A DNA stretch of 32,000 nt from Pseudomonadota bacterium (GCA_023423895.1 JAFAER010000267.1:1-32000), one strand, 5' to 3'. Shown: positions 4,467 to 14,903, counted from the first letter of the stretch. Notes: generated by a model from the sequence alone, not told the origin. Program-made: numbers and translations.

Positions 4467-5285
4467 TCACTTCTTCTTCTTCGTCTTGGCCTTGGCCTTC
4501 ACGGTCTTCTTGGGGACCGGCTTCTTCGAGACGGGCTTCTTCGCCGGCGCCTTGGCCGCGGGCTTCTTGGCGGCCGTTTTGGCTGCTGGCTTGGCGGCCG
4601 CTTTCGCCTTCGGCTTCACCTTCGCCGGCACTGGCTTGGCCTTCGCGGGCTCGGCCTTCGCCGGCTTCGCCTTTGCGGGCTCGGCCTTCGCCGGCTCGGC
4701 CTTTGCCGGCTTCGCCTTCGGGGGCTCGGCCTTCGGTGCGGGGGTCGGCTTCGTCAGCGCCTTCTTGCTAGGAGGCGCTGCTTTGACGGCCTTGGCCTTC
4801 TTCGGCGCCTCCTCCTCTTCCTCTTCTTCCTCCTCGACTTCAGGGGGCGGAGGCGGGCGCGGGGGAGGCGGCTTGCGCGGATCGGGCAGGTATTTGCTGA
4901 AGAAGGTCCGCATCGGCCCGAAGTACTTGTCGTTCCAGAGCTCGCGGTACTTCTCGCATTGGCCTTCGGGGATCTCGGTGTGGAGGACGGTCAGGCGGGT
5001 GCTTCCGCCGAGGGCCTCGAAGTGCACCTCCGCCCGCGAGTCCGACTCTTCCCGCGGAAAATCCGTGGTTCGCCAGCTCATGACGATGCGCCTTCCGAGG
5101 TCCAGCGTCACGAGCTTGCCCGTGACGTACCCGTTCAGCGCGGTGAAATTCCCGCCAACCTCGGAGTCGATCTTCGCCGCCCCGCCCGTCATCTCGCTGT
5201 GTTGCTCGGGGTTGAGCCACGCGAGATATAGCGTCGTGGGAGCCGCCGGGATCGTCGTCGAGACGCGGAGGGCCTCCTTCTTCAT
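4467..5285 (-). CDS. SRPBCC/AHSA1 (Aha1-like) domain protein fused to poly-Glu and histone-H1-like Lys/Ala/Pro-rich tail
   Basis: The N-terminal ~135 aa resemble Activator-of-Hsp90-ATPase-homolog/SRPBCC proteins (TTLYLAWLNPEQHSEMTGG.., ..RLTVLHTEIPEG). They are followed by PPPPRPPPPP, E10, then KAEPAKAKPAKA-type repeats ending KAKTKKKK. Confidence 0.8.
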   Translation of the reverse strand: MKKEALRVSTTIPAAPTTLYLAWLNPEQHSEMTGGAAKIDSEVGGNFTALNGYVTGKLVTLDLGRRIVMSWRTTDFPREESDSRAEVHFEALGGSTRLTVLHTEIPEGQCEKYRELWNDKYFGPMRTFFSKYLPDPRKPPPPRPPPPPEVEEEEEEEEEAPKKAKAVKAAPPSKKALTKPTPAPKAEPPKAKPAKAEPAKAEPAKAKPAKAEPAKAKPVPAKVKPKAKAAAKPAAKTAAKKPAAKAPAKKPVSKKPVPKKTVKAKAKTKKKK

Positions 5286-5516
5286 GACGAGCAGCGTAAC
5301 TCGCCCGACGAGAGGGAAGCTAAAATCTCGCGCACACTGCAGCTAATTCTGTGTCCGCTCGTCGGGACTCTCGCGGAGACGAGCCGAAGGCCCTCGAGCG
5401 AGGTATTTCGGGACACCCGAGGGATGGATATCGGGGCCCGCCTTCACCCGAGCGGCGGCCCTACCTCGGAGGGGACATCTTGGCGCCAGCGGCCGAAACA
5501 GGCCTATTTTCAGGCG

Positions 5517-5598
5517 GAAGTCAGGCGACTCGAACACCATACCTTGCGGTACGCACCGGGTAGCGGCCGGGCCCGCGACCATTCGCGGTTTGACTTCC
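5517..5598 (-). tRNA. tRNA-Ser(GCU)-like, class II, non-canonical
   Basis: Minus strand: acceptor GGAAGUC/GACUUCC, anticodon loop CCGCUAC on a 4-bp CCGG stem, variable hairpin UGCG-UAC-CGCA, T-loop UUCGAGU. C33 and short stems lower confidence. Confidence 0.5.
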
Positions 5599-5660
5599 AT
5601 AAGCAGATGTCCGGACGGCTCGTCCGGAGCAGGTCGCTGCGGGGGCCGGAGGGCATCGGT

Positions 5661-5733
5661 ACGGGGCGAGAGGATCGAACTCTCCTGTGCCTGCTCGTGA
5701 GGCAGGTGTCATCACCAGATGAGCGAGCCCCGC
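5661..5733 (-). tRNA. tRNA-Val(CAC)
   Basis: Acceptor GCGGGGC/GCCCCGU, anticodon arm CCUGC-CUCACGA-GCAGG, T arm GAGAG-UUCGAUC-CUCUC. The D arm is atypical (UCAUC-UGGU-GAUGA). Confidence 0.65.
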
Positions 5734-5828
5734 ATGGCTTCGAGACGTGACGGTCGGCGGTCTCTGGGAGTCGTCGCCCGGCTCGTGCCCGGCCTCGTGA
5801 TAGGCGGGGCGTCGGGTCGTCTCGAGGC

Positions 5829-5899
5829 TCCGGAGGAGGGAATTGCACCCCCACCCCAGCGGTTCAAAGCCGCGGATCCTGCTGTTGGAACACTCCGGA
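5829..5899 (-). tRNA. tRNA-Gln(UUG), G55 T-loop variant
   Basis: Acceptor UCCGGAG/CUCCGGA (7 bp), anticodon loop CUUUGAA, T arm GGGGG-UGCAAUU-CCCUC. Confidence 0.6.
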
Positions 5900-5925
5900 A
5901 TGGGTGGCTCAGCGAGTGAGCCGGT

Positions 5926-5993
5926 CGCTGCGGGCAGAGTCGAACTGCCTGGACCGCGCTCATGAGGCGCGCCCTCCTCCGAGGACCGCAGCG
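5926..5993 (-). tRNA. tRNA-Met(CAU) type, short D arm (68 nt)
   Basis: Acceptor CGCUGCG/CGCAGCG, anticodon arm CGCGC-CUCAUGA-GCGCG, T arm GGCAG-UUCGACU-CUGCC. The D arm is reduced to UCC-UCGGA-GGA. Confidence 0.6.
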
Positions 5994-6038
5994 GAGGTCC
6001 GCGCTCGACGTGTGCACGTGCGTGCGTGCTGGGCGAGA

Positions 6039-6108
6039 GCGGTGACCGAGAATCGCACTCGGATCTCGAGCGTGGCGTGCTCGGGTTCTGCTCTTGAACT
6101 ATCACCGC
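6039..6108 (-). tRNA. tRNA-Gly(GCC), G55 T-loop variant
   Basis: Acceptor GCGGUGA/UCACCGC, D arm GUUC-AAGAGCA-GAAC, anticodon arm CGAGC-ACGCCAC-GCUCG (C33), T arm CCGAG-UGCGAUU-CUCGG. Confidence 0.6.
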
Positions 6109-6137
6109 AGGATCGGGCCACGTGGAACCCGCGTCGA

Positions 6138-6210
6138 GCCGCCCGAGGGAATTGCACCCTCCTCGTTCCTCGCTACCAGTGAGGTGCCCCGCTGTCTGGG
6201 CGTGGGCGGC
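6138..6210 (-). tRNA. tRNA-Thr(GGU), G55 T-loop variant
   Basis: Acceptor GCCGCCC/GGGCGGC, D arm GCCC-AGACAGCG-GGGC, anticodon loop CUGGUAG, T arm GAGGG-UGCAAUU-CCCUC. Confidence 0.6.
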
Positions 6211-6223
6211 ACGTGAAATAGTC

Positions 6224-6270
6224 GCTCGTCCTCGAGTCATTGCCTCACGAGGCCCCTCGTGAGGACGAGC
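6224..6270 (-). terminator. composite hairpin in the rsr 3' region (terminator or processing structure)
   Basis: Plus-strand gctcgtcctc (6224-6233) pairs with gaggacgagc (6261-6270), enclosing the inner stem acgagg/cctcgt. On the minus strand it lies ~70 nt after the rsr stop and is followed by GACUAUUUCACGU. Confidence 0.3.
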
Positions 6271-6341
6271 AGGTCGACGGCAACGAGGGACGTGCGGTCG
6301 ACATGACCGCCACGGGCATTTGCCGTAGGTTCGAGAGCCGA

Positions 6342-7955
6342 TCACACGGCGATTGACTCGATCGCCTGGAGAAACGCCGCTCCGTCCGCGTCGTCGCTCG
6401 CGAAGGAGGCGACGAGGTCGAAGACGGCATCGGAGAAACCTCCGACGTTCAACACGTCGGAGCGGGTCTGCACTTGCGTCGTCGCGTACGGTTGGAGGTC
6501 CACGAGAACGAGCTTCGCGCGCGGGTTGCTCGCGCGGAGTCGGTCCCACTCCTCCGCCATCACGGTTCCGCGCGTCGCGCTGCTGCCGGAGTCGGCGGAG
6601 CGCGGCGCCAGCCTGAAGTCAGCCCAGGACTGGTTGTCGGAGACAAAGACGACCACGTCGGGCGCGGTTCCACGAGCGTTGAGCCACCGTAGCGGCGCAG
6701 CGCACGAGGTCCCGCCGCTCGGGAGCGACGACAGCAACTCGGCATTGGTGACGACCGAGTCGAGTGCGTTCAGCGGACGCGGAAGCTGCACGACGTCGTC
6801 CGAGAAGGGCAGCACCGTCGCGTGCTCGTTCTTGCGAAGGAGCGCGGCGGTCGCCAGCGCGGCGACGTCGATGCAGCGGACCTTCGAGGTGGCCGTCCCT
6901 CGATGGCCTGTGACGGGCGAGTGCATCGACCCGGAGACGTCGGGACAGAGCGCAACGGAGCCCGGGATCGCGGGCACGTTGCCGACGGCGTGCTCGACGG
7001 CGCGAGCCAGCGCGCTGACGATTACCGGCGGCATGCTCTGCTCGACGGCGCGATACGTTGCGAGCAGCTGATACGGGAGCGTGCGCGAGCGCCTCACGGC
7101 GTCGGCGTCCGAGAGCTGCTCGGCGACGAGCTCGACGATCGCGGGGTCGGTGAAGACGCCGTGACGGTAGAGCGTGTTCAGATTTTGGCGGAGCTGGTTG
7201 AACGTCATCTTCTTCGCCAGCTCGGTCCAGTGCGCCGCGCGCAGAGGGAGAGCGGTAAGCATCTCGAACGGCACGTCGGGCAGCGGCTTCCGATCGTTCT
7301 TCTTCCAGGCCTCGAAGGCCTGGGTGAGCGGCGGCAGCTTCGAGCAGTCCACGTTCTTTCCGATGAGGTAGCCGTAGAGGGCCTCACGGACGGCATCGGC
7401 TTCGCCCTTCCCCCCGACGGCGTTCCGCGGGGGAGGACGAACCATCTTGATGACGTCCGACATGGACGGGCTCTGACCGATGGACTGGCGGAAGATGGTC
7501 TCGGGGCTCCTTGCTGCGAACCATTCGCGGAGAGCCCGTTTGGGCGCCGACCCGAACGACTTGCGGCCGGTGACTCCAGAACGGACGATCGCGACGAACG
7601 CACGCAACATCCGCGCATCGTCGATGACGCGCGGGAACACGCGGAGCATGAGCGAGACGTCGTGGGCGGCGAGCCAGGCGACGAGGAACGCGGGGACGTC
7701 CTTCATCCTGCCGTGCTCACGACAGTAGACAGCCGTCTTCGCGACGAGCTCGGGGCGGACGGCGCTCGCGAGCTCCGCGACCTTGTCGAGCTGCTGCTGA
7801 CCGGTCGCGTAGAACGTGCGATGGAACGTCCCGGTCACCGCATACTGCGCGAGCGCATGCTCGGGCGAGAGCGCGTATGCCGGACCTCCGGCCTCGTTGC
7901 GAGCATCGGCCACGGGCGCTTTGCGTGCGTGACCAAAAAGATGTGTGTTCGGCAT
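6342..7955 (-). CDS. rsr: Ro60 ortholog: TROVE domain plus vWA domain with MIDAS motif
   Basis: 537 aa. The N-terminal region is typical of TROVE/Ro60 (NEAGGPAYALSPEHALAQYAVTGTFHRTFYA). The C-terminal vWA has a DVSGSM MIDAS-like motif. AAGGAG Shine-Dalgarno sits 6 nt upstream of the ATG. Confidence 0.85.
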   Translation of the reverse strand: MPNTHLFGHARKAPVADARNEAGGPAYALSPEHALAQYAVTGTFHRTFYATGQQQLDKVAELASAVRPELVAKTAVYCREHGRMKDVPAFLVAWLAAHDVSLMLRVFPRVIDDARMLRAFVAIVRSGVTGRKSFGSAPKRALREWFAARSPETIFRQSIGQSPSMSDVIKMVRPPPRNAVGGKGEADAVREALYGYLIGKNVDCSKLPPLTQAFEAWKKNDRKPLPDVPFEMLTALPLRAAHWTELAKKMTFNQLRQNLNTLYRHGVFTDPAIVELVAEQLSDADAVRRSRTLPYQLLATYRAVEQSMPPVIVSALARAVEHAVGNVPAIPGSVALCPDVSGSMHSPVTGHRGTATSKVRCIDVAALATAALLRKNEHATVLPFSDDVVQLPRPLNALDSVVTNAELLSSLPSGGTSCAAPLRWLNARGTAPDVVVFVSDNQSWADFRLAPRSADSGSSATRGTVMAEEWDRLRASNPRAKLVLVDLQPYATTQVQTRSDVLNVGGFSDAVFDLVASFASDDADGAAFLQAIESIAV

Positions 7956-8050
7956 GACGACTCCTTTCCGAGCGAGGGCGTGTTCGGCCGTGCGCGTGCT
8001 CGAGCGCGCGACCGTGTGATTCCGGTCGATGAATGAACGAGAGACGAGGC

Positions 8051-8123
8051 GTTCCCGACGGGATTCGAACCCGTGTTCCTGGATTGAGAGCCCAGAGTCC
8101 TTGGCCGCCTAGACGACGGGAAC
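8051..8123 (-). tRNA. tRNA-Glu(CUC)
   Basis: Acceptor GUUCCCG/CGGGAAC, D arm GUC-UAGGCGGCCAAG-GAC, anticodon arm CUGGG-CUCUCAA-UCCAG, T arm ACGGG-UUCGAAU-CCCGU. Confidence 0.85.
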
Positions 8124-8135
8124 AGTGGAGATGAA

Positions 8136-8262
8136 GGTCGTCCGAGTGACTCGAGCATCGGTGTTGACTTGGGAATCGAACCCAAACCGTCAGCCTGGAA
8201 AGCTGATGTCCTGACCATTTGGACGAGTCGAGTGCGTGTGAGCTCGGGTCGAGCGGACGACC
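8136..8262 (-). ncRNA. stem-clamped tRNA-like RNA (unit 0), Y-RNA-like candidate
   Basis: A perfect 9-bp closing helix GGUCGUCCG (8262-8254) / CGGACGACC (8144-8136). Next comes a 3x3 internal loop (CUC vs ACU), then helix 2 GACCCGAGC/GCUCGAGUC (8 of 9 bp) and an ACACGCA linker. The stem encloses D, anticodon (UCC) and T arms but no proper acceptor stem. Confidence 0.55.
8162..8233 (-). tRNA. tRNA-Gly(UCC)-like core of unit 0 (acceptor stem degenerate)
   Basis: D arm GUCC-AAAUGGUCA-GGAC, anticodon arm UCAGC-UUUCCAG-GCUGA, T arm UUGGG-UUCGAUU-CCCAA. Only 3-4 of 7 acceptor positions can pair. Confidence 0.4.
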
Positions 8263-8266
8263 TGGA

Positions 8267-8337
8267 TGCAGCGGCTGGAGTCGCACCAGCGTCTCGAGCG
8301 TATGAAGCTCGCGGGGTGGCTCCTCCCCCACGCTGCG
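8267..8337 (-). tRNA. tRNA-Met(CAU) type with C1xA72 mismatch, G55 T-loop variant
   Basis: 5' strand CGCAGCG vs 3' strand CGCUGCA (C1/A72 unpaired, an initiator-like feature). D arm GGGG-AGGAGCCA-CCCC, anticodon arm CGAGC-UUCAUAC-GCUCG, T arm GCUGG-UGCGACU-CCAGC. CCA is encoded. Confidence 0.65.
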
Positions 8338-8382
8338 ATGACGCTCCGAAGCCGAGAGCAGTGCTCTCGGTCTCCAGAGGGC

Positions 8383-8453
8383 ACCTCCGCCGGGAGTCGA
8401 ACCCGGGAGAACGAGCTTCGGATGCTCGACCCTGATTCCGTCAGGACGAAGGT
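8383..8453 (-). tRNA. tRNA-Arg(CCG)
   Basis: Acceptor ACCUUCG/CGGAGGU (one G-U), anticodon arm CGAGC-AUCCGAA-GCUCG, T arm CCGGG-UUCGACU-CCCGG. Confidence 0.75.
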
Positions 8454-8484
8454 AGATGATGGAGACAGATGCTGAATGTTTGGC

Positions 8485-8555
8485 CTCCCCGCTAGGAATC
8501 GAACCTAGACAACCGGCTTCGTAGACCGATGCATGGAATCCACCACGACGAGGAG
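8485..8555 (-). tRNA. tRNA-Arg(ACG)
   Basis: Acceptor CUCCUCG/CGGGGAG, anticodon arm UCGGU-CUACGAA-GCCGG, T arm CUAGG-UUCGAUU-CCUAG. CCA is encoded. Confidence 0.75.
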
Positions 8556-8576
8556 AAACGAAAATCGAGCGACAGA

Positions 8577-8664
8577 GGAAGAAAGAGGTCTCGAACCCCA
8601 CACCCTCGGTGAAGGGTGCGCTTTGCTTTCGAAGCAAGCCTGGCTCCCAGCCAGTTTTTCTCCC
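8577..8664 (-). tRNA. tRNA-Ser(CGA), class II
   Basis: Acceptor GGGAGAA/UUCUUCC, D arm CUGG-CUGGGAG-CCAG, anticodon arm CUUGC-UUCGAAA-GCAAA, long variable hairpin CACCCU-UCACCG-AGGGUG, T-loop UUCGAGA. Confidence 0.7.
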
Positions 8665-8671
8665 GAGAAGT

Positions 8672-8743
8672 GGTCGGTGAGGGAATCGAACCCCCTACGC
8701 AGAGCTTTTCAAACTCCCGCTCTACCATTCGAGCTTACCGACC
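8672..8743 (-). tRNA. tRNA-Phe(GAA)
   Basis: Acceptor GGUCGGU/ACCGACC, D arm GCUC-GAAUGGUA-GAGC, anticodon arm GGAGU-UUGAAAA-GCUCU, T arm GGGGG-UUCGAUU-CCCUC. Confidence 0.9.
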
Positions 8744-8752
8744 CTGTGACAC

Positions 8753-8790
8753 CGTTGGCGCGTTGCGCCCCGTTGCGCCTCGTTGCGCGT
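8753..8790. repeat. four tandem copies of CGTTG(C/G)CG at 8-10-bp spacing in a tRNA spacer
   Basis: cgttggcg cgttgcgc cc cgttgcgc ct cgttgcgc, read directly between tRNA-Phe and tRNA-Ser(GGA). Confidence 0.7.
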
Positions 8791-8815
8791 CGCGGACACG
8801 TCAGGGCCGCGGAGA

Positions 8816-8902
8816 GGAAGGCAGAGGACTCGAACCCCACGCGGACGATGGCCGCGCGAATCGCGTTCCAGACGATCTCCGCCCCTGGCGGATTTGCCTT
8901 CC
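8816..8902 (-). tRNA. tRNA-Ser(GGA), class II
   Basis: Acceptor GGAAGGC/GCCUUCC, anticodon arm AUCGU-CUGGAAC-GCGAU, variable hairpin CGCGG..CCGCG, T-loop UUCGAGU. Confidence 0.75.
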
Positions 8903-8955
8903 GTGTTCGTGTATCGATTCGTTCGAGCTCGCACGGCGTGCGGAACGAGCGCGGT

Positions 8956-9029
8956 CAGGACGGCAGGATTCGAACCTGCGGTCTCCAGTCCCCCAGACTG
9001 GCGCTTTTGCCTGGCTAAGCTACGCCCTG
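8956..9029 (-). tRNA. tRNA-Pro(GGG)
   Basis: Acceptor CAGGGCG/CGUCCUG (C1-G72), D arm GCUU-AGCCAGGCAA-AAGC, anticodon arm CCAGU-CUGGGGG-ACUGG, T arm GCAGG-UUCGAAU-CCUGC. Confidence 0.85.
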
Positions 9030-9077
9030 AGATGCCGGCGCGTGACGGCTTCGTGAATGGGTGGATGTCGCGCGAGG

Positions 9078-9114
9078 CGAGAAGAATAGGAGGTCCAGTT
9101 TCACGTCTTGGACC
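9078..9114 (-). terminator. candidate intrinsic terminator after the HNH gene
   Basis: Minus-strand hairpin GGUCCA-(11 nt)-UGGACC followed by UCCUAUUCUUCU. A second 8-bp hairpin (GUCGUGGC/GCCACGAC) lies just upstream. Confidence 0.35.
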
Positions 9115-9170
9115 AGGACGCGGGAGCGTGTGTCGTGGCGCGGGCCACGACGCATCGATGCGTCGACGTC

Positions 9171-9773
9171 TCAGGCAGAGAGCGAAGCCGGCGCAGTGTA
9201 GCCGTCGCAGTACGGCTGCCAGACATCCGGCAGCTCACTCTCGTCGAGACGGATCGGCGGCACGACGGGCAGCGAGGTCGGCTTCTTCGGCTGCCGCAGC
9301 AGCTTCATGCCGGCCTGCTCAGGCGTGCGGCTCCCCTTGCGATCATTGCAGGCGTAGCAGGAGGTCACGATGTTCTCCCAGACGGTCTTGCCTCCCCGAA
9401 CACGCGGGATGACGTGGTCGTAGTTCAGTTGCTTCATCGGCTTCTTCTCGCCGCAGTACTGGCAACGGAACTTGTCCCGCGTGAACACGTTCAACCGGGA
9501 GAAGCGGACCGACTGCTTCGTCGACACCGACCCCTTCTTCAGGCGGACGACGGCGGGGGCGAGCATCGCGAAGCTCGGGGCGCGGAGCTCCGCGTCCCAG
9601 GTCTCGATGACTTCGACCTTGTCGAGGTAAGCCAGCACGACGGCGCGCTGCCAGGGAATGATCTTGTGAGGCGCCATCCAGGGGGTCAGCATCAGCGTTT
9701 GCATGGGGATCACCGTTTCTTTCTCGTTCTCACGGCTCGTTCTCCTTTCGGAGGTGTTGAAGGAGTCGTGCAC
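9171..9773 (-). CDS. HNH endonuclease (COG1403-like, ~180 aa class)
   Basis: CQYCG..(N)LNYDHVIPRVRGGKTVWENIVTSCYACNDRKG is a classic HNH/zinc-ribbon core. The N-terminal MQTLMLTPWMAPHKIIPWQRAV matches the usual start of this family, so ATG 9704 is the likelier start. Confidence 0.85.
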   Translation of the reverse strand: MHDSFNTSERRTSRENEKETVIPMQTLMLTPWMAPHKIIPWQRAVVLAYLDKVEVIETWDAELRAPSFAMLAPAVVRLKKGSVSTKQSVRFSRLNVFTRDKFRCQYCGEKKPMKQLNYDHVIPRVRGGKTVWENIVTSCYACNDRKGSRTPEQAGMKLLRQPKKPTSLPVVPPIRLDESELPDVWQPYCDGYTAPASLSA

Positions 9774-9847
9774 GATGCACGACGACAGAAGCGCAAAGGG
9801 ATGGACGTGTGACCGGACGCTGAGGCGGCGCGTGGATGGCGCGCAGT

Positions 9848-9931
9848 GTCACCGGAGGGAGTCGAACCCTCAAACTCCATGCGGAGCCCAGCATCTCGGG
9901 CTGGTGTGTATTCCAATTCCACCACAGTGAC
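9848..9931 (-). tRNA. tRNA-Leu(GAG), class II
   Basis: Acceptor GUCACUG/CGGUGAC, anticodon arm CCAGC-CCGAGAU-GCUGG (C33), variable hairpin CUCC-GCAU-GGAG, T arm GAGGG-UUCGACU-CCCUC. Confidence 0.75.
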
Positions 9932-9998
9932 GTATTCGCGTGACGTATCGCGTCCGGTCGCTCCCGGCGGATGGCCGAGGTGCGATGGGGACGTTGGT

Positions 9999-10073
9999 AC
10001 CGACGGAGGGATTCGAACCCTCACAACACACAGTTTCTGAGACTGCGGCCTCTACCAGTTGGGCCACGTCGGC
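9999..10073 (-). tRNA. class-I-sized tRNA-like gene with CAG (Leu-type) anticodon
   Basis: Acceptor GCCGACG/CGUCGGU, anticodon arm GCAGU-CUCAGAA-ACUGU, 7-nt variable region GUGUUGU (no long arm), T arm GAGGG-UUCGAAU-CCCUC. The D stem is imperfect. CCA is encoded. Confidence 0.5.
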
Positions 10074-10117
10074 TCGAGGCGTGCTCCGCGTCCGCTCGAG
10101 GCGTGCGCGTGCGTGGT

Positions 10118-10191
10118 CTGTGCAGGAGGATTCGAACCTCCAATCCCTCCGACCCGAACGGAGTGCTCTAGCCAGGTTGAGCCATGCACAG
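10118..10191 (-). tRNA. tRNA-Pro(CGG)
   Basis: Acceptor CUGUGCA/UGCACAG, D arm GCUC-AACCUGGCUA-GAGC, anticodon arm CUCCG-UUCGGGU-CGGAG, T arm GGAGG-UUCGAAU-CCUCC. CCA is encoded. Confidence 0.9.
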
Positions 10192-10233
10192 AGGACCAGC
10201 GAAGCCCGACGGGAGCTCGAGCGTGGCTGGGGT

Positions 10234-10303
10234 GGACAAGTCGGGAGTCGCACCCGATCCATCTGCTTGCAAGGCAGACGTCTCCCCTCGGAGACAAGCC
10301 CGT
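10234..10303 (-). tRNA. tRNA-Ala(UGC)-like element with no pairable acceptor stem
   Basis: Anticodon arm UCUGC-CUUGCAA-GCAGA and T arm UCGGG-UGCGACU-CCCGA are clear. The D region is a 6-bp hairpin GUCUCC-GAGG-GGAGAC. The two ends carry the same-sense GACAAG instead of complementary strands. The right boundary is approximate. Confidence 0.35.
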
Positions 10304-10354
10304 GATGATGATGACGGCGGTCCGTCGCTGGAATCGCAGCGGTCCGTGCCCGGT

Positions 10355-10426
10355 GCGGCGCGCAGGGATCGCACCTGCCTCCTCCTGCTCGTCATGCAGG
10401 CGCAGTCGCTAGACTGCCAGCGCCGC
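10355..10426 (-). tRNA. tRNA-Val(GAC), G55 T-loop variant
   Basis: Acceptor GCGGCGC/GCGCCGC, D arm GCAG-UCUAGCGA-CUGC, anticodon arm CCUGC-AUGACGA-GCAGG, T arm GCAGG-UGCGAUC-CCUGC. Confidence 0.8.
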
Positions 10427-10489
10427 TCTCGCTGTTCGACCCCAGGGTGCAAACGTGCACACGTTTGTACGTCTGTCCCTCGCGTCGGT

Positions 10490-10561
10490 GGATCACCTGC
10501 GAATCGAACGCAGTGCGGGCTCCTTATCAGAGAGTCCAGGGTGACCAACCCGTCGTGATCC
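10490..10561 (-). tRNA. tRNA-Ile(GAU)
   Basis: Acceptor GGAUCAC/GUGAUCC, anticodon loop CUGAUAA on stem CUCU/GGAG, T arm CUGCG-UUCGAUU-CGCAG. Confidence 0.7.
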
Positions 10562-10603
10562 CGTGCTCCGTAGAGCTCGCGTTGCTGCCCGAGCGACGCG
10601 GGA

Positions 10604-10671
10604 GAGCCGAGAGGGAGTTGAACCCTCGCGCACCGTGTTGCAGACGGCGATCCTCGCCGGAGAATCGGCTC
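10604..10671 (-). tRNA. tRNA-Cys(GCA)
   Basis: Acceptor GAGCCGA/UCGGCUC, short D arm, anticodon arm GCCGU-CUGCAAC-ACGGU, T arm GAGGG-UUCAACU-CCCUC. Confidence 0.7.
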
Positions 10672-10738
10672 GAAGAAGTGGGCGCAGTTCCTCGTGGGCC
10701 GACGTCACGTGAGCGTCGGCGGTGGGGGGCTGCGCGGA

Positions 10739-10808
10739 GCGGGCAGAGGGAGTCGCACCCTCATTGTCAGTTTGGAAGACTGCGGTCCTGCTGTTGGACG
10801 ATGCCCGC
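10739..10808 (-). tRNA. tRNA-Gly(UCC), G55 T-loop variant
   Basis: Acceptor GCGGGCA/UGCCCGC, D arm GUCC-AACAGCA-GGAC, anticodon loop CUUCCAA, T arm GAGGG-UGCGACU-CCCUC. Confidence 0.75.
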
Positions 10809-11241
10809 GAGTGGTGGTGGTGTGTGAATGGTGTGGCCGGAGATGGGGGAGCAAAAGTGGGGATGCGGTTCCGAAATCGCAAGTCTCGACGAAGGTGATG
10901 AAGACATGGTGCTCGGCGGCGGATCGCTGCCTCTGCACCGTCGGCACATTGGAGCCGCCCGTGAGGGCTGCTCCCGTTCGCCCCGCAATAGGGAAGTTCA
11001 CCGAAGTGGTCTCCCGAGAGCGCCCGGCTGGAGTCTGCGGGGCGCTCTCTGACTTCCCCTATGCCATCGCTAGATCGGTCGCCCGACCGTCGCTACCTTA
11101 GGACCGTTATAGTTACGGATGTAGTCCTCATCGGCATTCGAGACCGACGACGCTTGCTCGTGTCGTGTGAGATCCTTCTTGGTGTGCGGACGACGTCGCG
11201 TACGACGACGTCGTCGAAGTGAATGGATGAAGGTGGTTGGT
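10809..11241 (-). ncRNA. structured non-tRNA insert in the array (candidate ncRNA containing a 23S rRNA H69-H71-like segment)
   Basis: No tRNA fits. There is a three-way structure at 10988-11062: AUAGGGGAAGU/ACUUCCCUAU closing GAGAGCGCCC/GGGCGCUCUC and a CAC-UUCG-GUG hairpin. A T-arm-like hairpin UCGGU-CUCGAAU-GCCGA lies at 11131-11147, plus the rRNA-identical 29-mer. Orientation is assumed from the surrounding array. Confidence 0.4.
11090..11118 (-). other. 29-nt perfect copy of the conserved 23S rRNA helix 69/70 segment (contains the I-CeuI homing site)
   Basis: Minus strand reads CCGUAACUAUAACGGUCCUAAGGUAGCGA. From memory this is identical to E. coli 23S about 1908-1936 (H69 loop with U1911/1915/1917) and includes TAACTATAACGGTCCTAAGGTAGCGA. 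The downstream GUCGGG..GACC..GAUGGC loosely echoes H71. Confidence 0.75.
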
Positions 11242-11313
11242 GGAGCCGGCCGGACTCGCACCGGCAGCCTCCTCGATGCCATCGAGGCGCTCTCCTCGCT
11301 GAGCTACGGCCCC
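11242..11313 (-). tRNA. tRNA-Ala(GGC), G55 T-loop variant
   Basis: Acceptor GGGGCCG/CGGCUCC with G3-U70, D arm GCUC-AGCGAGGA-GAGC, anticodon arm CCUCG-AUGGCAU-CGAGG, T arm GCCGG-UGCGAGU-CCGGC. CCA is encoded. Confidence 0.8.
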
Positions 11314-11353
11314 GTTCGTTTCGTGGCGTGGTCTTACTGTTCTATGCGCGGGT

Positions 11354-11423
11354 GGAGCGACGGGGAATCGCACCCCGATCCCTGCAGTGCGAATGCAGCG
11401 TTCTCCTGTTGAACTATCGCCCC
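11354..11423 (-). tRNA. tRNA-Ala(CGC), G55 T-loop variant
   Basis: Acceptor GGGGCGA/UCGCUCC with G3-U70, D arm GUUC-AACAGGA-GAAC, anticodon arm CUGCA-UUCGCAC-UGCAG, T arm CGGGG-UGCGAUU-CCCCG. Confidence 0.8.
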
Positions 11424-11480
11424 GTGCCATGATCCGTTCGTCGACGGCGACACGACGTTCATGACGAGAATGGGAGGGGC

Positions 11481-11550
11481 AGGCCGCGAAGGAATCGAAC
11501 CCTCTCTCCGGGGGTTGGAATCCCGGCTGGTCGCCATGACTCTACGGCCT
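11481..11550 (-). tRNA. tRNA-Trp(CCA) (alternative reading Gly-UCC)
   Basis: Acceptor AGGCCGU/GCGGCCU with A1-U72 and G73. The best anticodon-arm fold is CGGGA-UUCCAAC-CCCCG (A31xC39). T arm GAGGG-UUCGAUU-CCUUC. Confidence 0.6.
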
Positions 11551-11595
11551 ATCTTGTGTGCGGGAACATGGGGATGGCGATCCCTCGACGTTGGC

Positions 11596-11666
11596 GACCC
11601 ATACCGAAATCGAATCGGTCTCACGCCGTAGACAGCGGCGCTGCGACACCAGTCGCATCATGGGCC
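11596..11666 (-). tRNA. tRNA-Asp(GUC)
   Basis: Acceptor GGCCCAU/AUGGGUC, anticodon arm CGCCG-CUGUCUA-CGGCG, T arm ACCGA-UUCGAUU-UCGGU. The D region is a GCGAC-UGGU-GUCGC hairpin. CCA is encoded. Confidence 0.75.
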
Positions 11667-11702
11667 AGAAGCTCTGGAACCTTGGTACTTCTTCTTGCGG
11701 GC

Positions 11703-11773
11703 GTCCCCGGCAGGAGTCGAACCTGCGTCGGCTGGTTTAGAAGACCAGCGCCTATCCGCTCGGCCACGAGGAC
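11703..11773 (-). tRNA. tRNA-Arg(UCU)
   Basis: Acceptor GUCCUCG/CGGGGAC, anticodon arm CUGGU-CUUCUAA-ACCAG, T arm GCAGG-UUCGACU-CCUGC. Close paralog of the next gene. Confidence 0.85.
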
Positions 11774-11810
11774 GTGCGGTCAGCGACGGCGGCCGAAGCG
11801 TGGTGTGGGC

Positions 11811-11881
11811 GTCCCCGGCAGGAATCGAACCTGCGTCGACCGGCTCAGGAGACCGGAGCCTGTCCGCTCGGCCACGAGGAC
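11811..11881 (-). tRNA. tRNA-Arg(CCU)
   Basis: Same acceptor and D arm as the previous gene. Anticodon arm CCGGU-CUCCUGA-GCCGG, T arm GCAGG-UUCGAUU-CCUGC. Confidence 0.85.
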
Positions 11882-11928
11882 CAGACCATGCGTTGACCGA
11901 GAGCCGAGCGAGGTGACGCGCGGCCGGG

Positions 11929-12000
11929 GTAGCGTACGGGAATCGCACCCGCCTCCACTGAGTCACAATCAGTCCTCGTCACTAGACGAGTAACGCTACC
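11929..12000 (-). tRNA. tRNA-His(GUG) with encoded G-1, G55 T-loop variant
   Basis: Acceptor GUAGCGU/ACGCUAC preceded by G(-1) opposite C73. D arm CUCG-UCUAGUGA-CGAG, anticodon arm ACUGA-UUGUGAC-UCAGU, T arm GCGGG-UGCGAUU-CCCGU. Confidence 0.85.
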
Positions 12001-12086
12001 GTGTATTCTTGTGCTCATCGAGGTTGTTCGTGTCAACCCGCCTTTGGAGCGAATCGTTCGCTTTCGATGATTGTCGATTGGTTGGT

Positions 12087-12157
12087 GCTCCCGATCGGAA
12101 TCGAACCGATACCTTCCGCTTGAAAGGCGGAGATCCTGACCACTAGATGACGGGAGC
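12087..12157 (-). tRNA. tRNA-Glu(UUC)
   Basis: Acceptor GCUCCCG/CGGGAGC, anticodon arm UCCGC-CUUUCAA-GCGGA, T arm AUCGG-UUCGAUU-CCGAU. CCA is encoded. Confidence 0.85.
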
Positions 12158-12407
12158 GAGGAATGAAGCGAGCCCCGGACGAGCCGAGGGATGTCGTCGC
12201 AGGCGCTCGCGCTTTCGGCTCGTTGGCCGAAGGGCGAGCTTCGGGCGGCACCGGTCACGCGCGAGCGAACGAGAGCGCGCGCCGGTACGGAAGAGGAGCG
12301 CCTCGTCGGACGCGGGCCCGCGAGGCGTGGAGCTCAGATGTGAGCTCGGCAAGCTCGCCGGCGTCGGGGAGAGGTGTGTGGGACCGACGCGCGAGCTGCT
12401 GGAGAGG

Positions 12408-12623
12408 TTTCTCACCCGAGTGAAAAAGCCTTTGGATTGAACCATCTTCAAGGATGAGGCCTTTACCAATTAGGCTATCGCTGCATTTGGTCCGGTCGTG
12501 ACCGGGCGCTCTCGTATGAGAGCCGACGATGGACGTCGCGGTGACGAGCACCGTGTGCAGCGAGTCGGATTCGAACCGACAATTTCTCGATTGCGTGTAG
12601 GGCATCTTCGGGCGGGTGAGAAA
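12408..12623 (-). ncRNA. circularly permuted tRNA-like RNA, unit 1 (YrlA/Y-RNA-like candidate)
   Basis: Minus strand read 5'->3'. Closing strand UUUCUCACCCG (12623-12613), CCC, helix-2 strand GAAGAUGCC, then CUACACGCAAU linker. T arm GUCGG-UUCGAAU-CCGAC (12580-12564), acceptor 3' strand UCGCUGC (12563-12557), and a 72-nt hairpin-rich cap. Acceptor 5' strand GCAGCGA (12484-12478), D arm GCC-UAAUUGGUAAA-GGC, hairpin UCAUC-CUUGAA-GAUGG. It ends GGCUUUUUC, ACU, closing strand CGGGUGAGAAA (12418-12408). Confidence 0.6.
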
Positions 12624-12726
12624 GATCGTGGGCGCTCGAGCCAAGCTCAGCGGAGCGGCGAGCGGCGAAGGCGAAGGCGAGCTCGGGACGATGACGGAGG
12701 AGCCCGCGTCCGAGCGCGGCGTGGGT

Positions 12727-12803
12727 CCCTCGTGATGGAATCGAACCACCTGCCGAAAGGCACCGGGTTACAGCCGGCTGCTCCGCCATGGAGCGAACGA
12801 GGG
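12727..12803 (-). tRNA. tRNA-Tyr(GUA), class II
   Basis: Acceptor CCCUCGU/ACGAGGG, D arm GCUC-CAUGGCG-GAGC, anticodon arm GCCGG-CUGUAAC-CCGGU, variable hairpin GCC-UUUC-GGC, T arm GGUGG-UUCGAUU-CCAUC. Confidence 0.85.
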
Positions 12804-12822
12804 AGGACGAGGGATGAGAGGG

Positions 12823-12989
12823 ATCACCCGAGTGGGAAAGCCGTCATTCGTCTGAAAGGACGAGCGCCTTGACCATTAGGCTACGCTGGAAGGAGTAGTA
12901 GCGCGTGGGCTCGAGCGAGCTCGAGGTTCCAGCGGTCGGAATCGAACCGACGTCTCTCATTGCGTGTAGGGCCTTCGCGGCCGGGTGAT
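12823..12989 (-). ncRNA. circularly permuted tRNA-like RNA, unit 2 (YrlA/Y-RNA-like candidate)
   Basis: Minus strand read 5'->3'. Closing AUCACCCG (12989-12982), GCCGC, GAAGGCC, CUACACGCAAU linker. T arm GUCGG-UUCGAUU-CCGAC (12951-12935), acceptor 3' strand CGCUGGA (12934-12928) followed by ACC, then a 37-nt cap with the CUCGAG-CUCG-CUCGAG hairpin. Acceptor 5' strand UCCAGCG (12890-12884), D arm GCC-UAAUGGUCAA-GGC, hairpin UCGUC-CUUUCA-GACGA. It ends GGCUUUC, CCACU, CGGGUGAU (12830-12823). Confidence 0.6.
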
Positions 12990-12992
12990 GGA

Positions 12993-13063
12993 GCCCACGT
13001 CCGGAATCGAACCGGATCCTCCCGTGTACGAGGCGGGCGCTCGGCCAGTCGAGCTGCGCGGGC
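12993..13063 (-). tRNA. tRNA-Thr(CGU)
   Basis: Acceptor GCCCGCG/CGUGGGC, D arm GCUC-GACUGGCC-GAGC, anticodon arm CCCGC-CUCGUAC-ACGGG (C31xA39), T arm UCCGG-UUCGAUU-CCGGA. CCA is encoded. Confidence 0.75.
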
Positions 13064-13205
13064 AAAAGGCCGTACGTCATCCCGGTACGGCGGACGGGCG
13101 AAGTGAAACCGCGAGGGTCCCACGGAAAAAGGTGCTCGCGGTGCGCGCGGCGCTCTCGAGAGGAGAGCGCGCACGCCGGCGCGCGCGGGGGAAAGTCGAG
13201 AGGAG

Positions 13206-13362
13206 GCTCGTCCGAGTGAAGAGAGCCTTGCGATGTGCTCGTGTGCGAAACGAGTGCCTTTTCCGTTTGGCTGGCGGCCCTTTGCCTTTCGGCGAGGTGG
13301 ACCACGTTGGATTCGAACCAACATGTCGTGCGTGTGTGGCCTGTTCGAACGGACGAACGAGC
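13206..13362 (-). ncRNA. circularly permuted tRNA-Ala-like RNA, unit 3 (YrlA/Y-RNA-like candidate)
   Basis: Minus strand read 5'->3'. Closing UCGUCCG (13356-13350), UUC, GAACAGGCC, ACACACGCA linker. T arm GUUGG-UUCGAAU-CCAAC (13322-13306), acceptor 3' strand GUGGUCC (13305-13299) followed by ACC, then an 18-nt cap GCC-GAAA-GGC. Acceptor 5' strand GGGCCGC (13280-13274, giving G3-U70), D arm GCC-AAACGGAAAA-GGC, anticodon arm CUCGU-UUCGCAC-ACGAG (CGC). It ends GGCUCUCUUC, ACU, CGGACGA (13214-13208). Confidence 0.6.
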
Positions 13363-13433
13363 TCCAGCGGAAGGAATCGAACCTTCGAATGACCGGTTAA
13401 CAGCCGGCTGCCTGACCATTCGGCTTCGCTGGA
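13363..13433 (-). tRNA. tRNA-Asn(GUU)
   Basis: Acceptor UCCAGCG/CGCUGGA (identical to the unit 2 acceptor), anticodon arm GCCGG-CUGUUAA-CCGGU, T arm GAAGG-UUCGAUU-CCUUC. Confidence 0.85.
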
Positions 13434-13587
13434 ATGTGTGCTCGTCGCGTCCGTGCGTGCTGCTGCCGTCTCGGCGAATCCGATCTCTTCCGAGGCGGGA
13501 CGACGAAGCGGTCAGCGCGCACGGACGCGACGAGCTTTTTGGCGCCAAGTTGTCAGAGAGCGAGGGACGTCGTGAGACGTCCGCGGT

Positions 13588-13657
13588 TCCGGGCACAGGA
13601 TTCGAACCTGTCTTCCTGGATTCAGAGACCAGTGTCCTGCCGCTAGACGAGCCCGGA
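13588..13657 (-). tRNA. tRNA-Gln(CUG)
   Basis: Acceptor UCCGGGC/GCCCGGA (U1-A72), D arm GUC-UAGCGGCAG-GAC, anticodon loop CUCUGAA, T arm ACAGG-UUCGAAU-CCUGU. Confidence 0.75.
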
Positions 13658-13716
13658 GCAGGAGCGGCGTGCCGAAGGCGCACGTCGCCTGTGGCCGCGT
13701 CCTTCGACGCGGCGGT

Positions 13717-13788
13717 AGGTCCGGAGGGGGTCGAACCCTCACCACCCCGATTAAGAGTCGGGTGCGCTTCCACTTGCGCTACGGACCC
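13717..13788 (-). tRNA. tRNA-Lys(CUU)
   Basis: Acceptor GGGUCCG/CGGACCU, D arm GCGC-AAGUGGAA-GCGC, anticodon arm CCCGA-CUCUUAA-UCGGG, T arm GAGGG-UUCGACC-CCCUC. Confidence 0.85.
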
Positions 13789-14092
13789 GTGACGAGAAGC
13801 GCGCGTTGCTGTTCGTGTCGGAAAGAGCGAGCGCGCCTTCGGTATTGCTTGGGCGCGCCCGACGGTCATGTCGCGTGCAAGCCGGATCCGCATGAGGATC
13901 CCGCGATGCAGCGACGTCGCCGAGTCGAAGACGAGGACGTCGAGGACCATGGGGGTCGAGCCACGCGTCGTGACCGATGCTCGGTGACGAGCGAGAGAGG
14001 GGTAGGGGAGAGAGTCGAGTCGCGAAAAGACGAGCGTGGTGTGCGCCGCCGCGACGCCAGCGACGTGTCTGCCGGCGCGCGGCGCAGGGGGG

Positions 14093-14164
14093 GGGGCGCG
14101 AGGGGGTCGAACCCTCATCCCTCGGCTTAAAAGGCCGGTGCTCGGCCGATTGAGCTAGCGCCCC
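14093..14164 (-). tRNA. tRNA-Lys(UUU), first gene of the array
   Basis: Acceptor GGGGCGC/GCGCCCC, D arm GCUC-AAUCGGCC-GAGC, anticodon loop CUUUUAA, T arm GAGGG-UUCGACC-CCCUC. Confidence 0.8.
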
Positions 14165-14903
14165 ATGAATCGCGTTTGAGAACGCGACGTGGACTTAGAT
14201 TCCTAGCTTGAGAAACATGATCGAACCTGTCGACAAAGTCGTATTGTTAGGCATGGCCGAATCGGGCCGCGCCAGTAGGGAGGATCGAACGGCGCCGAAG
14301 CGAGGAAGGCCGCTCCGGTCAGCCTTCTGTTCCGCGAGACCATGGCCCGGCGGCCTCCTCGGACGGGGCGGCGATGCCGCAGTCCGACGAGAAGGGAGCT
14401 CGAGCGCCGTCGAGGTGGCGGCGCGCCATCGGCTGATGATGCGCAGAAAATCCCGGCCCAGAAACGCCGAAGGCCACCTCGGGGACTACCCCGGGCGGCC
14501 TCTGCGAACGGCTCCGAACGATGGAGACGATACGAGGGACCGCTAGGGGTCGCCTTCCTCCTGGTTTGCGCTCGGACCGAGCGGACGAGGGGCGGCGAAC
14601 ATGCGGCTCTGGGCCTGATCGAGGCCGTCGAAGCCGCCAAGGATGGCAGGGGAGGCAGAGATGGACGGAGAGGCGGAGCGCGGGACGGAGGTCCGGCAGC
14701 TCTGGCCAGCGACGAACCCACCCGAGGTGGGTCGGCGCCACGCGCGATGCGACCGTCCCTCGGACGCGAGATACGTCACGCCGTTGCGCTCTTGCGCTCC
14801 AGCGGCCGTCCTCTTGTCTTTCAGGGAGATGATCACGCGAGTCGAACACGCCCGGGACCTCCGGAACGTGCCTCCATGTGGAGAAGGGGTTGCTGTTTCT
14901 AGA

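Follow-up and report, generated by a model that had tools for sequence, protein, structure and literature searches.

Two kinds of bacterial locus come closest to the one described here. The first is the tRNA array unit, or L-array, in which at least 20 co-oriented tRNA genes for 19-20 amino acids lie at more than two per kb without periodicity, with an HNH endonuclease gene of one family embedded or adjacent (PMC4758250 and PMC8421152; mycobacterial cases in PMC5966550 and PMC12803027); such arrays are redundant with the host set, and their neighbourhoods are enriched in RNA-repair genes (rtcB). The second is the Ro60/Y RNA locus, in which a Ro60 orthologue (Rsr) is encoded next to same-strand, tRNA-mimicking Y RNAs, as in the Salmonella rsr-yrlBA-rtcBA operon and the Rsr/Y RNA/PNPase locus of Deinococcus (PMC4201824; PMC7790460). 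Rsr and Y RNA tether an exoribonuclease for the decay of structured RNA, as in the Rsr-Y RNA-PNPase complex of Deinococcus; the YrlA of M. smegmatis is cleaved by RNase P and has CCA added; Ro60-encoding mycobacteriophages with YrlA have been described, and few YrlA RNAs are known from delta-proteobacteria (Chen et al. 2014, PMC4201824). We have analysed a stretch of 32,000 nt ("the window") of a Pseudomonadota bacterium (GCA_023423895.1 JAFAER010000267.1:1-32000), part of an 86-kb metagenome scaffold, in which the two kinds of locus are joined: a single block holds 36 tRNA genes, four Y RNA-like tRNA mimics, rsr, an HNH gene of the array type and one conserved promoter-like site. On balance, we favour the view that this block is a chromosomally fixed, domesticated spare-tRNA unit of the phage type, joined to a Ro60 (Rsr)/Y RNA surveillance locus, which would back up a damaged tRNA pool.

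The 36 tRNA genes, specific for 20 of the 20 amino acids, extend over positions 5513-14164 of the window, all on the minus strand, at a density of 4.2 genes per kb:

13361..14164, minus strand: tRNA block 1, with Lys-UUU 14090-14164, Lys-CUU 13714-13788, Gln-CUG 13585-13657 and Asn-GUU 13361-13433 (ARAGORN; Rfam 53.8-62.3 bits; anticodons kept in 8 relatives)
12989..13063, minus strand: tRNA-Thr-CGU (ARAGORN, Rfam, anticodon conservation)
12722..12804, minus strand: tRNA-Tyr-GUA, class II, variable region of 11 nt (ARAGORN; an orthologue at the same position only in relative L008)
9846..12157, minus strand: tRNA block 2, part a, with Glu-UUC 12083-12157, His-GUG 11926-11999, Arg-CCU 11808-11881, Arg-UCU 11699-11774 and Asp-GUC 11592-11666
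9846..12157, minus strand: tRNA block 2, part b, with Trp-CCA 11477-11551, Ala-CGC 11351-11423, Ala-GGC 11238-11313, Gly-UCC 10736-10808 and Cys-GCA 10601-10671
9846..12157, minus strand: tRNA block 2, part c, with Ile-GAU 10487-10561, Val-GAC 10352-10426, Ala-UGC 10231-10301, Pro-CGG 10114-10191, Leu-CAG 9995-10073 and Leu-GAG 9846-9931
8263..9029, minus strand: tRNA block 3, with Pro-GGG 8953-9029, Ser-GGA 8814-8902, Phe-GAA 8670-8743, Ser-CGA 8575-8664, Arg-ACG 8481-8555, Arg-CCG 8379-8458 and Met-CAU 8263-8337
8048..8123, minus strand: tRNA-Glu-CUC, directly upstream of rsr (ARAGORN, Rfam, anticodon conservation)
5513..6210, minus strand: tRNA block 4, with Thr-GGU 6136-6210, Gly-GCC 6037-6108 (C33), Met-CAU 5923-5993, Gln-UUG 5826-5899, Val-CAC 5658-5733 and Ser-GCU 5513-5598

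With 36 tRNA genes in 8.65 kb, the block is a tRNA array unit as defined by Tran et al. (2016, PMC4758250), and it is long, unidirectional, closely spaced and non-periodic, as an L-array is in PMC8421152. At default settings, ARAGORN called 34 tRNA genes (5658-14164), every one on the minus strand, and added Ala-UGC (10231-10301) once its threshold was slightly relaxed. It mis-called Asp-GUC (11592-11666, between Trp and Arg-UCU), a clean cloverleaf of 75 nt with the anticodon loop CUGUCUA, whose minimum-energy centroid fold is a cloverleaf and which aligns with tRNAs that ARAGORN calls Asp in relatives. The gene at 5513-5598 is an orthologue of called Ser-GCU genes. The gathering score of the Rfam tRNA model is reached by 25 members of the array; class II and unusual members come close, the best Rfam matches of Ser-GGA, Cys and Tyr being tRNA-Sec-like and below threshold. 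Most spacers measure 6-150 nt, and the longer ones contain Y-like genes, rsr or HNH; the tRNAs corresponding to those on either side of the gap at 10809-11237 adjoin each other in relative L010. Spurious open reading frames (ORFs), typical of high-GC DNA, have entered the public gene calls for this locus: "proteins" of 274 and 349 amino acids cover tRNA and Y-like genes (L001 11611-12435 and 4063-5112, corresponding to about 5521-6345 and 12844-13893 of the window).

An earlier note on this DNA, written from the sequence alone, had folded 37 tRNA-like genes by hand, and its list, with the anticodons, the 20 specificities and the common orientation on the minus strand, is reproduced by ARAGORN, Rfam and orthology. 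The 36 genes above are real tRNA genes; the remaining candidate, "Gly-UCC" (8160-8232), belongs to a Y RNA-like mimic. Nor do covariance models reject most of the candidates, an outcome that the note had allowed for, and its view of a Myxococcota-like host agrees with the Labilithrix-like genome (Polyangia) that we find. Short D arms, T arms of the GGTGCGA type and C33 in two tRNAs (Gly-GCC and Leu-GAG), all of which it had recorded, are real features, while its suggestion that many members may be decoys was overstated: the anticodon is kept across 8 relatives in 36 of the 37, and identity elements have been preserved. Each of the 36 tRNAs has as its best match in these relatives a gene with the same anticodon, with rare shifts only within an amino acid (e.g., Val-CAC to Val-UAC). 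All three Ala tRNAs retain G3:U70, and His retains G-1:C73. Met-CAU 8263-8337 retains an initiator-like C1xA72 mismatch, but its anticodon stem lacks the run of three G-C pairs found in canonical initiators.

Whether the array is accessory can be judged from the codons that it reads. By standard wobble rules, it reads 98.8% of the 4914 codons of 13 confident window genes; unlike other L-arrays, its anticodon set is tuned to GC-rich codons, the repertoire of about one G34 and one C34 anticodon per box matching the host preference for G- or C-ending codons. Six codons, TTG, CTA, CCA, TCA, ACA and GTA, are unreadable by the array and occur 57 times in total, at least once in each of the 13 genes. 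As these six are in use and no canonical initiator is present, other tRNA genes, of a putative second, canonical set, should exist elsewhere, and the array is almost certainly an accessory system, as the earlier note had proposed. The converse, that dispersed tRNAs were consolidated into a housekeeping operon which is the main or only set, with rsr and HNH as passengers, appears very unlikely to us. It has in its favour the complete amino acid coverage, the high fraction of readable codons and the conservation of position, order and anticodons in all Labilithrix-like relatives, and with the Thr-UGU, Pro-UGG, Val-UAC, Leu-CAA and Ser-UGA genes of those relatives the union nears a full set. However, decoders are lacking for six codons used in every window gene, no tRNA has a canonical initiator anticodon stem, an A18:G55 elbow, non-canonical and shared with viral arrays, is present in roughly one tRNA in four, Leu-CAG lacks the long variable arm, like Leu tRNAs of phage arrays, and Labilithrix luteola and other Polyangia have just 2-11 tRNAs at rsr.

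Unlike described L-arrays, the present one encloses rsr and four Y-like RNA genes. Repeat analysis revealed a tRNA+Y unit of about 370 nt, present in three copies with T-arm-like sequences outside the called tRNAs, the sole repeat in an otherwise non-periodic array. Rfam searches of the array, at gathering and at permissive thresholds, returned no Y RNA, and the family emerged only via repeat analysis and paralogue alignment. Scored with R1, a covariance model that we built for this family, its members in the window are:

13204..13358, minus strand: Y3, R1 120.4 bits, begins directly after the 3' end of tRNA-Asn
12820..12990, minus strand: Y2, R1 129.8 bits, begins directly after the CCA of tRNA-Thr-CGU
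12408..12621, minus strand: Y1, R1 128.5 bits, acceptor-like hairpin with a loop of about 90 nt
8134..8262, minus strand: Y4, R1 41.9 bits over the full model length, begins right after the CCA of tRNA-Met

In an alignment of the three copies, a 5' strand is followed by the conserved CUACACGCA motif, a T arm, an acceptor-like hairpin of 7-8 bp, UA, a D arm, an anticodon-like hairpin and the complementary 3' strand. The loop of the acceptor hairpin measures about 18-90 nt in Y1-Y3 and from 1 to about 100 nt over the family; the anticodon-like arm has 5 bp and a loop of 6-7 nt, and the long stem, conserved as UCGUCCG...CGGACGA, exits at the position of the variable arm. The 5' ends of Y2, Y3 and Y4 coincide with the nucleotide following a tRNA 3' end, and in 15 of 24 copies from the clade N-CC comes after the acceptor 3' strand, a feature of the array's tRNA genes as well. 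By profile search, each Labilithrix-like array contains 2-5 copies. RNAalifold on the 24 clade copies gave five helices, with compensatory changes in 20 of 32 pairs; 93.8% of the cells were paired, against 30-48% with slid partners, and the covariation score was 0.51 against about 0.1. In 70 distinct metagenome and viral copies, none of which was used in building R1, pairing amounted to 94%, compensatory changes occurred at 30 of the 32 pairs and the covariation score was 0.64, against at most 0.12 in controls. The long "spacers" are not junk: three of them, together with "Gly-UCC", encode a structured Y RNA-like family absent from Rfam, a conclusion strongly supported by covariation, and the RNA mimicry suspected in the earlier note takes the form of these four tRNA mimics.

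Y4 has the same terminal 5'/3' stem and an ACACGCA motif around a tRNA-like domain in normal order, which ARAGORN reports as "tRNA-Gly-UCC" (8160-8232). We rejected the latter as a decoding tRNA: its acceptor stem is mismatched, it sits within the conserved Y-like stem, and its "anticodon" varies over six loci (UCC, CGU, CAG, GUC, CGC, CCU), so Y4 is not a decoder.

With YrlA (RF02553) the family shares the terminal 5'/3' stem enclosing T arm, acceptor-like hairpin, UA and D arm, with canonical T and D loops (RNAalifold and pair counts against the Rfam consensus structure), and we confirmed this element order on a genuine YrlA adjoining rsr in Inquilinus. Unlike YrlA, the Y-like RNAs possess an extra anticodon-like arm after the D arm, in clade and metagenome copies alike, so that the terminal stem does not replace the anticodon arm; further differences are the conserved motif, the variable acceptor-hairpin loop, the second form in normal order (Y4) and the tandem copies fused behind tRNAs. 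The Rfam YrlA model gave no match at E<=1 over 5000-15500, the best score being 18.7 bits on the T/acceptor/D core of Y2, against a gathering score of 69; the same model does recover YrlA in alphaproteobacterial rsr loci (71-75 bits). Conversely, R1 gives weak but correctly placed matches to the known YrlA RNAs that follow rsr in many other phyla. Elsewhere in the family, anticodon-type loops such as CUCUUAA and CUCGUAA occur, and metagenome contigs carry 4-6 tandem copies (L172 3673-4413, L177 1345-2263, L202 3543-4638, L158 29-1122); the "anticodon" arm of the mimic seems to have diversified.

The two protein-coding genes within the array, both placed among the tRNAs in the earlier note, are confirmed by Pfam:

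6342..7955, minus strand: rsr, Ro60 orthologue of 537 amino acids (Pfam TROVE and vWA_Ro60; phrog_850)
9171..9773, minus strand: HNH endonuclease of 200 amino acids (Pfam HNH_5/HNH; full-length match to phrog_16726)

The rsr product combines the TROVE and vWA domains that characterise bacterial Ro60, and more than 6000 of its homologues are named "60 kDa SS-A/Ro ribonucleoprotein". Upstream of rsr and on its strand, Y4 is found at a distance of 180 nt and Y1-Y3 at 4.5-5.4 kb, so that Y4 falls within the range (about 4 kb, same strand) at which Y RNAs occur in bacterial Ro60/Y RNA loci. A CGAA element in the 5' strand of the Y-like RNAs resembles the proposed Rsr motif GNCGAAN0-1G. Unlike the Salmonella operon, the window lacks rtcB, rtcA and rtcR and has four Y-like genes instead of one or two; unlike the Salmonella and Deinococcus loci alike, it has 36 tRNA genes and HNH in the same unit. 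Homologues of the HNH protein are found within tRNA arrays of a Mycobacterium intracellulare plasmid, virus Rctr197k and viral contig L094, as well as in phage Mx1 and on plasmids of Acaryochloris and Nostoc, in keeping with the linked HNH homing endonuclease of L-arrays. They occur in all tRNA-bearing rsr loci of Polyangia and in arrays of Blastocatellia, and are absent from rsr loci without tRNAs. PADLOC, run on rsr, HNH and their neighbours, returned generic HNH-domain similarity only. We also looked for YrlA in the spacer after rsr; the search gave only a terminator-like hairpin.

Ten of the 36 tRNAs share an altered elbow, in which a T loop UGCRA (G55 for the universal U) is combined with AG instead of GG in the D loop:

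Minus strand, A18:G55 tRNAs: Gln-UUG 5826-5899, Gly-GCC 6037-6108, Thr-GGU 6136-6210, Met 8263-8337, Ala-UGC 10231-10301, Val-GAC 10352-10426, Gly-UCC 10736-10808, Ala-GGC 11238-11313, Ala-CGC 11351-11423 and His 11926-11999

The combination is conserved in orthologues; the GGTGCGA T arms, deviant as they are, belong to this covarying variant and are not a sign of decay. Among 488 tRNAs of rsr loci, the D loop contains GG in 392 of 397 with U55, whereas 62 of the 90 with G55 have AG and no GG; the remaining 28 do contain GG (within AGG in those listed). In 505 tRNAs of independent metagenome arrays, GG is present in 428 of 439 with U55 and missing from 42 of 55 with G55. The corresponding Fisher p values, 5e-50 and 5e-39, overstate independence, as the sequences are related to one another. 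The elbow accounts for about 11-18% of array tRNAs across data sets. It recurs in viral arrays, with 9 of 33 tRNAs in L094, and among tRNAs linked to rsr in Verrucomicrobia and Planctomycetes; it was not seen in the tRNAs of phage Mx1 nor, unlike here, in those of the mycobacterial plasmid array. We found no description of an A18 and G55 elbow in the literature searched; it is a recurrent, covarying change of the near-universal G18-psi55 contact.

A second peculiarity concerns Leu-CAG (9995-10073), which lacks a long variable arm and has the D loop common to "short Leu" tRNAs of phage and plasmid arrays. Such Leu tRNAs of 74-79 nt, with a common 11-nt D loop caaNuGGNaga, are found at 9995-10073 of the window, at 7905-7978 and 8806-8880 of L088, at 7420-7997 of L091 and at 9902-9977 of L090; they recur in arrays on chromosomes, plasmids and phages, which suggests that array tRNAs belong to one mobile pool.

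Altered D and T loops are a feature of non-proteinogenic staphylococcal tRNAGly. A non-ribosomal use, in which variant-elbow tRNAs and mimics would feed aminoacyl-tRNA-dependent enzymes of cell-wall or natural-product synthesis, or regulate, could build on the loss of the universal G18-psi55 contact and on the wealth of secondary metabolism in myxobacteria. We hold it to be most improbable, as A18:G55 spans 8 specificities including initiator-like Met and His, the window ORFs include no aminoacyl-tRNA-dependent transferase nearby, and the elbow also occurs in viral arrays.

Close Rsr homologues come from metagenome-assembled genomes (MAGs) of Polyangia labelled Labilithrix sp. or Polyangiaceae. 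We compared the block with ten relatives, two fetched by protein identity and eight GTDB species by similarity, with rsr 68-87% identical. In all 10 loci the layout is recA-comM-[tRNAs]-HNH-[tRNAs]-rsr-[tRNAs]-M18 peptidase-FGE-sulfatase-kinase, and the arrays comprise 21-35 tRNAs in conserved order, with Thr-UGU, Pro-UGG, Val-UAC, Leu-CAA and Ser-UGA as extra members. The GC content at third codon positions of rsr and HNH (0.86-0.88) is like that of the flanking genes. The shared site, order and anticodons and this host-like composition mean that the block is not a strain-specific island, and the idea of a recent insertion that the earlier note entertained is contradicted by the same array standing at the same site in all Labilithrix-like relatives; judged by sequence comparison, it looks like an old, vertically inherited feature of that clade. 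A prophage was likewise rejected: no phage hallmark domain and no structural or replication gene was found, and the flanks are chromosomal genes conserved in relatives. More distant Polyangia (rsr 58-62% identical) have merely 2-11 tRNAs at rsr, with 11 around rsr and HNH in L005, 7 in L017 and 4 in Labilithrix luteola DSM 27648 (L016). In relative L006, a Polyangiaceae MAG, the order is rtcR-rtcB-rtcA-tRNA-Arg-rsr-HNH-tRNA-Pro; here rsr stands behind the rtc genes, and a linkage of rsr to rtc genes is also seen in the Salmonella rsr-yrlBA-rtcBA operon.

Outside the clade, homologous modules occur in phages and unrelated phyla. L-arrays are patchily distributed and spread by horizontal transfer; within the Labilithrix-like clade, by contrast, inheritance looks vertical, with conservation at one chromosomal site. 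Among 80 rsr loci from GTDB, 11 have 21-32 co-oriented tRNAs, including independent arrays in Acidobacteriota (Bryobacterales, Blastocatellia), and 14 further ones have 2-7, where about 0.2 per 21 kb of ordinary genome would be expected. Smaller linkages of rsr and tRNA reach Alphaproteobacteria: the Rhodobacteraceae loci L048, L052, L062, L068 and L084 have a tRNA pair, Lys and Asn, some hundreds of bases past the end of rsr (about 0.2-0.8 kb in L052, L062 and L084), and R1 matches a YrlA-like core within about 300 nt after rsr in L052, L062 and L084.

Myxococcus phage Mx1 (OR576727) has the order TROVE-tRNA-pth...tRNA-HNH-tRNA, with the HNH gene between tRNA-Leu genes; its TROVE protein is 46% identical to the window Rsr, and the phage also encodes peptidyl-tRNA hydrolase. 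On a 183-kb IMG/VR contig (L093), rsr (44% identical) lies within an array of 31 tRNAs and a tmRNA (3411-3774). Y-like RNAs are found at 68-96 bits within the arrays of viral contigs (L094, L100 and L103; IMG/VR contigs of 137, 141 and 448 kb), once directly after tRNA-His. Among phage homologues, a TROVE protein (44-46% identical), an array-type HNH (42-47%), tRNAs and Y-like RNAs are united in one region, as in the window. Unlike these phage clusters, the window has no phage structural or replication genes, and its array occupies a conserved site flanked by recA, comM and the M18 peptidase gene. A motif scan of metagenomes yielded at least 120 loci, with 511 tRNAs in 619 kb; in the 100 of these loci that were scanned with R1, there were about 100 Y-like copies, mostly full-length and often 3-5 in tandem. 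In Rhizobium phage RHph_TM21B (L092 5582-7837), a vWA-domain protein of 752 amino acids is encoded directly upstream of a homologue of the array-type HNH, and ARAGORN called no tRNA in 16 kb there.

These phage homologues of the whole module lend themselves to a reading of the block as a selfish or decaying remnant, a phage- or plasmid-derived array kept by its HNH homing endonuclease, largely silent and without benefit to the host. The HNH family is common to mobile arrays, some tRNAs are off consensus, and L-arrays were poorly transcribed in earlier studies (according to PMC8421152). Purifying selection, on the other hand, is evident, with anticodons and identity elements kept while rsr falls to 68% identity; the Y-like RNAs and the elbows show compensatory changes, the anticodon set suits host codon usage, the genomic position is stable, and the codon bias has been ameliorated to that of the host. 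A selfish remnant is, in our judgement, unlikely.

Under the reading that we favour, of a domesticated spare-tRNA unit joined to Ro60/Y RNA surveillance, transcription of the block would yield a single long precursor or a small number of them. RNase P and RNase Z would free the tRNAs from these, the same cuts setting where the three Y-like RNAs located immediately behind a tRNA start. The array tRNAs would constitute a supernumerary set tuned to the G/C-ending codons of the host, able to make good a loss of housekeeping tRNAs, be it through depletion or through cleavage by ribotoxins, phage-defence nucleases or translational stress. Rsr may bind the conserved 5'/3' stem of the Y-like RNAs, whose tRNA-like module, by analogy with described Y RNAs, could guide or anchor an exoribonuclease that removes damaged or misfolded tRNA or rRNA. 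The HNH protein would be a homing-type nuclease, a companion of such arrays to which they probably owe their spread and maintenance; the module as a whole may derive from, or have been exchanged with, large phages and then been domesticated in the Labilithrix-like clade. Precedents exist for several of these steps: the Salmonella rsr/rtc operon is induced by damaged tRNAs (PMC7790460), in Anabaena translational stress switches on the L-array along with rtcB and the array's HNH gene, which helps the cells to survive (PMC8421152), and phage tRNAs are able to bypass tRNA-targeting defences (PMC10264068, PMC11555353).

Several points weigh against this reading. A TROVE match was found in only 3 of the at least 120 metagenome loci with Y-like RNAs, most of these loci being too short to show rsr nearby, and it is the architecture and the Labilithrix-like clade that point to Rsr as the partner of the Y-like RNAs. 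The Rfam scores of Val-CAC, Val-GAC, Arg-ACG and Ala-UGC are low (27-32 bits), two tRNAs (Gly-GCC and Leu-GAG) have C33, and the stem of Arg-CCG is mismatched. The supernumerary status of the set is deduced from codon readability and the initiator, and the promoter described below is a putative one, assigned by motif match. No RtcB, RTC or RtcR domain occurs in the window ORFs, rtc genes being present only in relative L006, so that a link to rtc-type regulation is suggested by analogy with this one relative and with other organisms.

The same components admit a more elaborate alternative, in which the four-armed Y-like RNAs and the array form a self-contained system for surveillance and replacement of the tRNA pool, the Y-like RNAs acting as sentinels or decoys for tRNA-cleaving nucleases and the A18:G55 tRNAs as replacements. 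It is suggested by the anticodon-type loops of the Y-like RNAs and by the N-CC with which the acceptor 3' strand ends in many of them: processing by RNase P, RNase Z and the CCA-adding enzyme could turn them into two-piece tRNA look-alikes, held by the Rsr-bound stem, and the A18:G55 elbow might hide a subset of tRNAs from elbow-reading attackers or from host modification and decay enzymes. We consider this alternative speculative and rather unlikely; if it were true, the A18:G55 tRNAs and the Y-like family would be general conflict adaptations of phage-type arrays.

At its borders, the block is accompanied by the following elements:

14175..14203, minus strand: promoter-like GGAATCT-N17-TCAAAC, just upstream of the first tRNA (alignment of 9 loci)
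6224..6270, minus strand: GC-rich hairpin followed by a T-rich run, 3' of rsr (conserved in alignment with L002 and L008)
14543..14836, minus strand: small ORF of 97 amino acids (91-97 in the loci), directly upstream of the array in all Labilithrix-like loci, with VILSLxDKRT...QEEGDP

The promoter-like site lies in a block (about 14194-14246, some 30-80 nt ahead of the first tRNA) that shares 76-92% identity with relatives. The GGAATCT-N17-TCAAAC site is the only one of its kind on the array strand, against 0.06 expected by chance, and a scan of 5200-15700 found no sigma-70 consensus site; from the sigma-E consensus of E. coli, we take it to resemble a promoter for an extracytoplasmic-function sigma factor. 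The hairpin at 6224-6270 is a candidate terminator or processing site. The region around the small ORF (14440-14990) contains a promoter-like TTGCGC-N17-TATAGC of its own, a terminator at 14452-14471 and a preceding hairpin with compensatory changes. Its product had no match in Pfam, PHROG or PADLOC; it could be a regulator of the array, and its membership in the system is uncertain. As tblastx matched in all frames, we considered the block 14455-14975 as a non-coding RNA, which was ruled out by indels in multiples of three and the conserved ORF of 91-97 amino acids. Between the array head and comM, about 7.7 kb (14980-22700) of ORFs with weak codon bias encode a Stig1-like Cys-rich protein, two unknowns, an RCC1-repeat protein and an IgGFc_binding protein; this segment, which L002 and L004 lack, seems to have been inserted later.

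Array units, array-linked HNH genes and rsr-YrlA loci were each known separately. Term searches of PMC8421152 and PMC4758250 gave no mention of Myxococcota or Deltaproteobacteria, and that of PMC8421152 none of rsr, and we could not find described the fusion of these elements into one conserved unit in Myxococcota and phages, the four-armed, tRNA-fused, tandem Y-like family or the A18:G55 class. The Y-like family, with more than 100 copies, often in tandem and usually within tRNA arrays, fills the gap in delta-proteobacterial Y RNAs noted by Chen et al. (2014, PMC4201824). Supernumerary tRNA arrays, Ro60/Y RNA ribonucleoproteins and array HNH nucleases form one conserved unit, common to a bacterial clade and large phages, and this unit provides a testable context for two questions, namely what the targets of bacterial Ro60/Y RNAs are and what purpose tRNA arrays serve.

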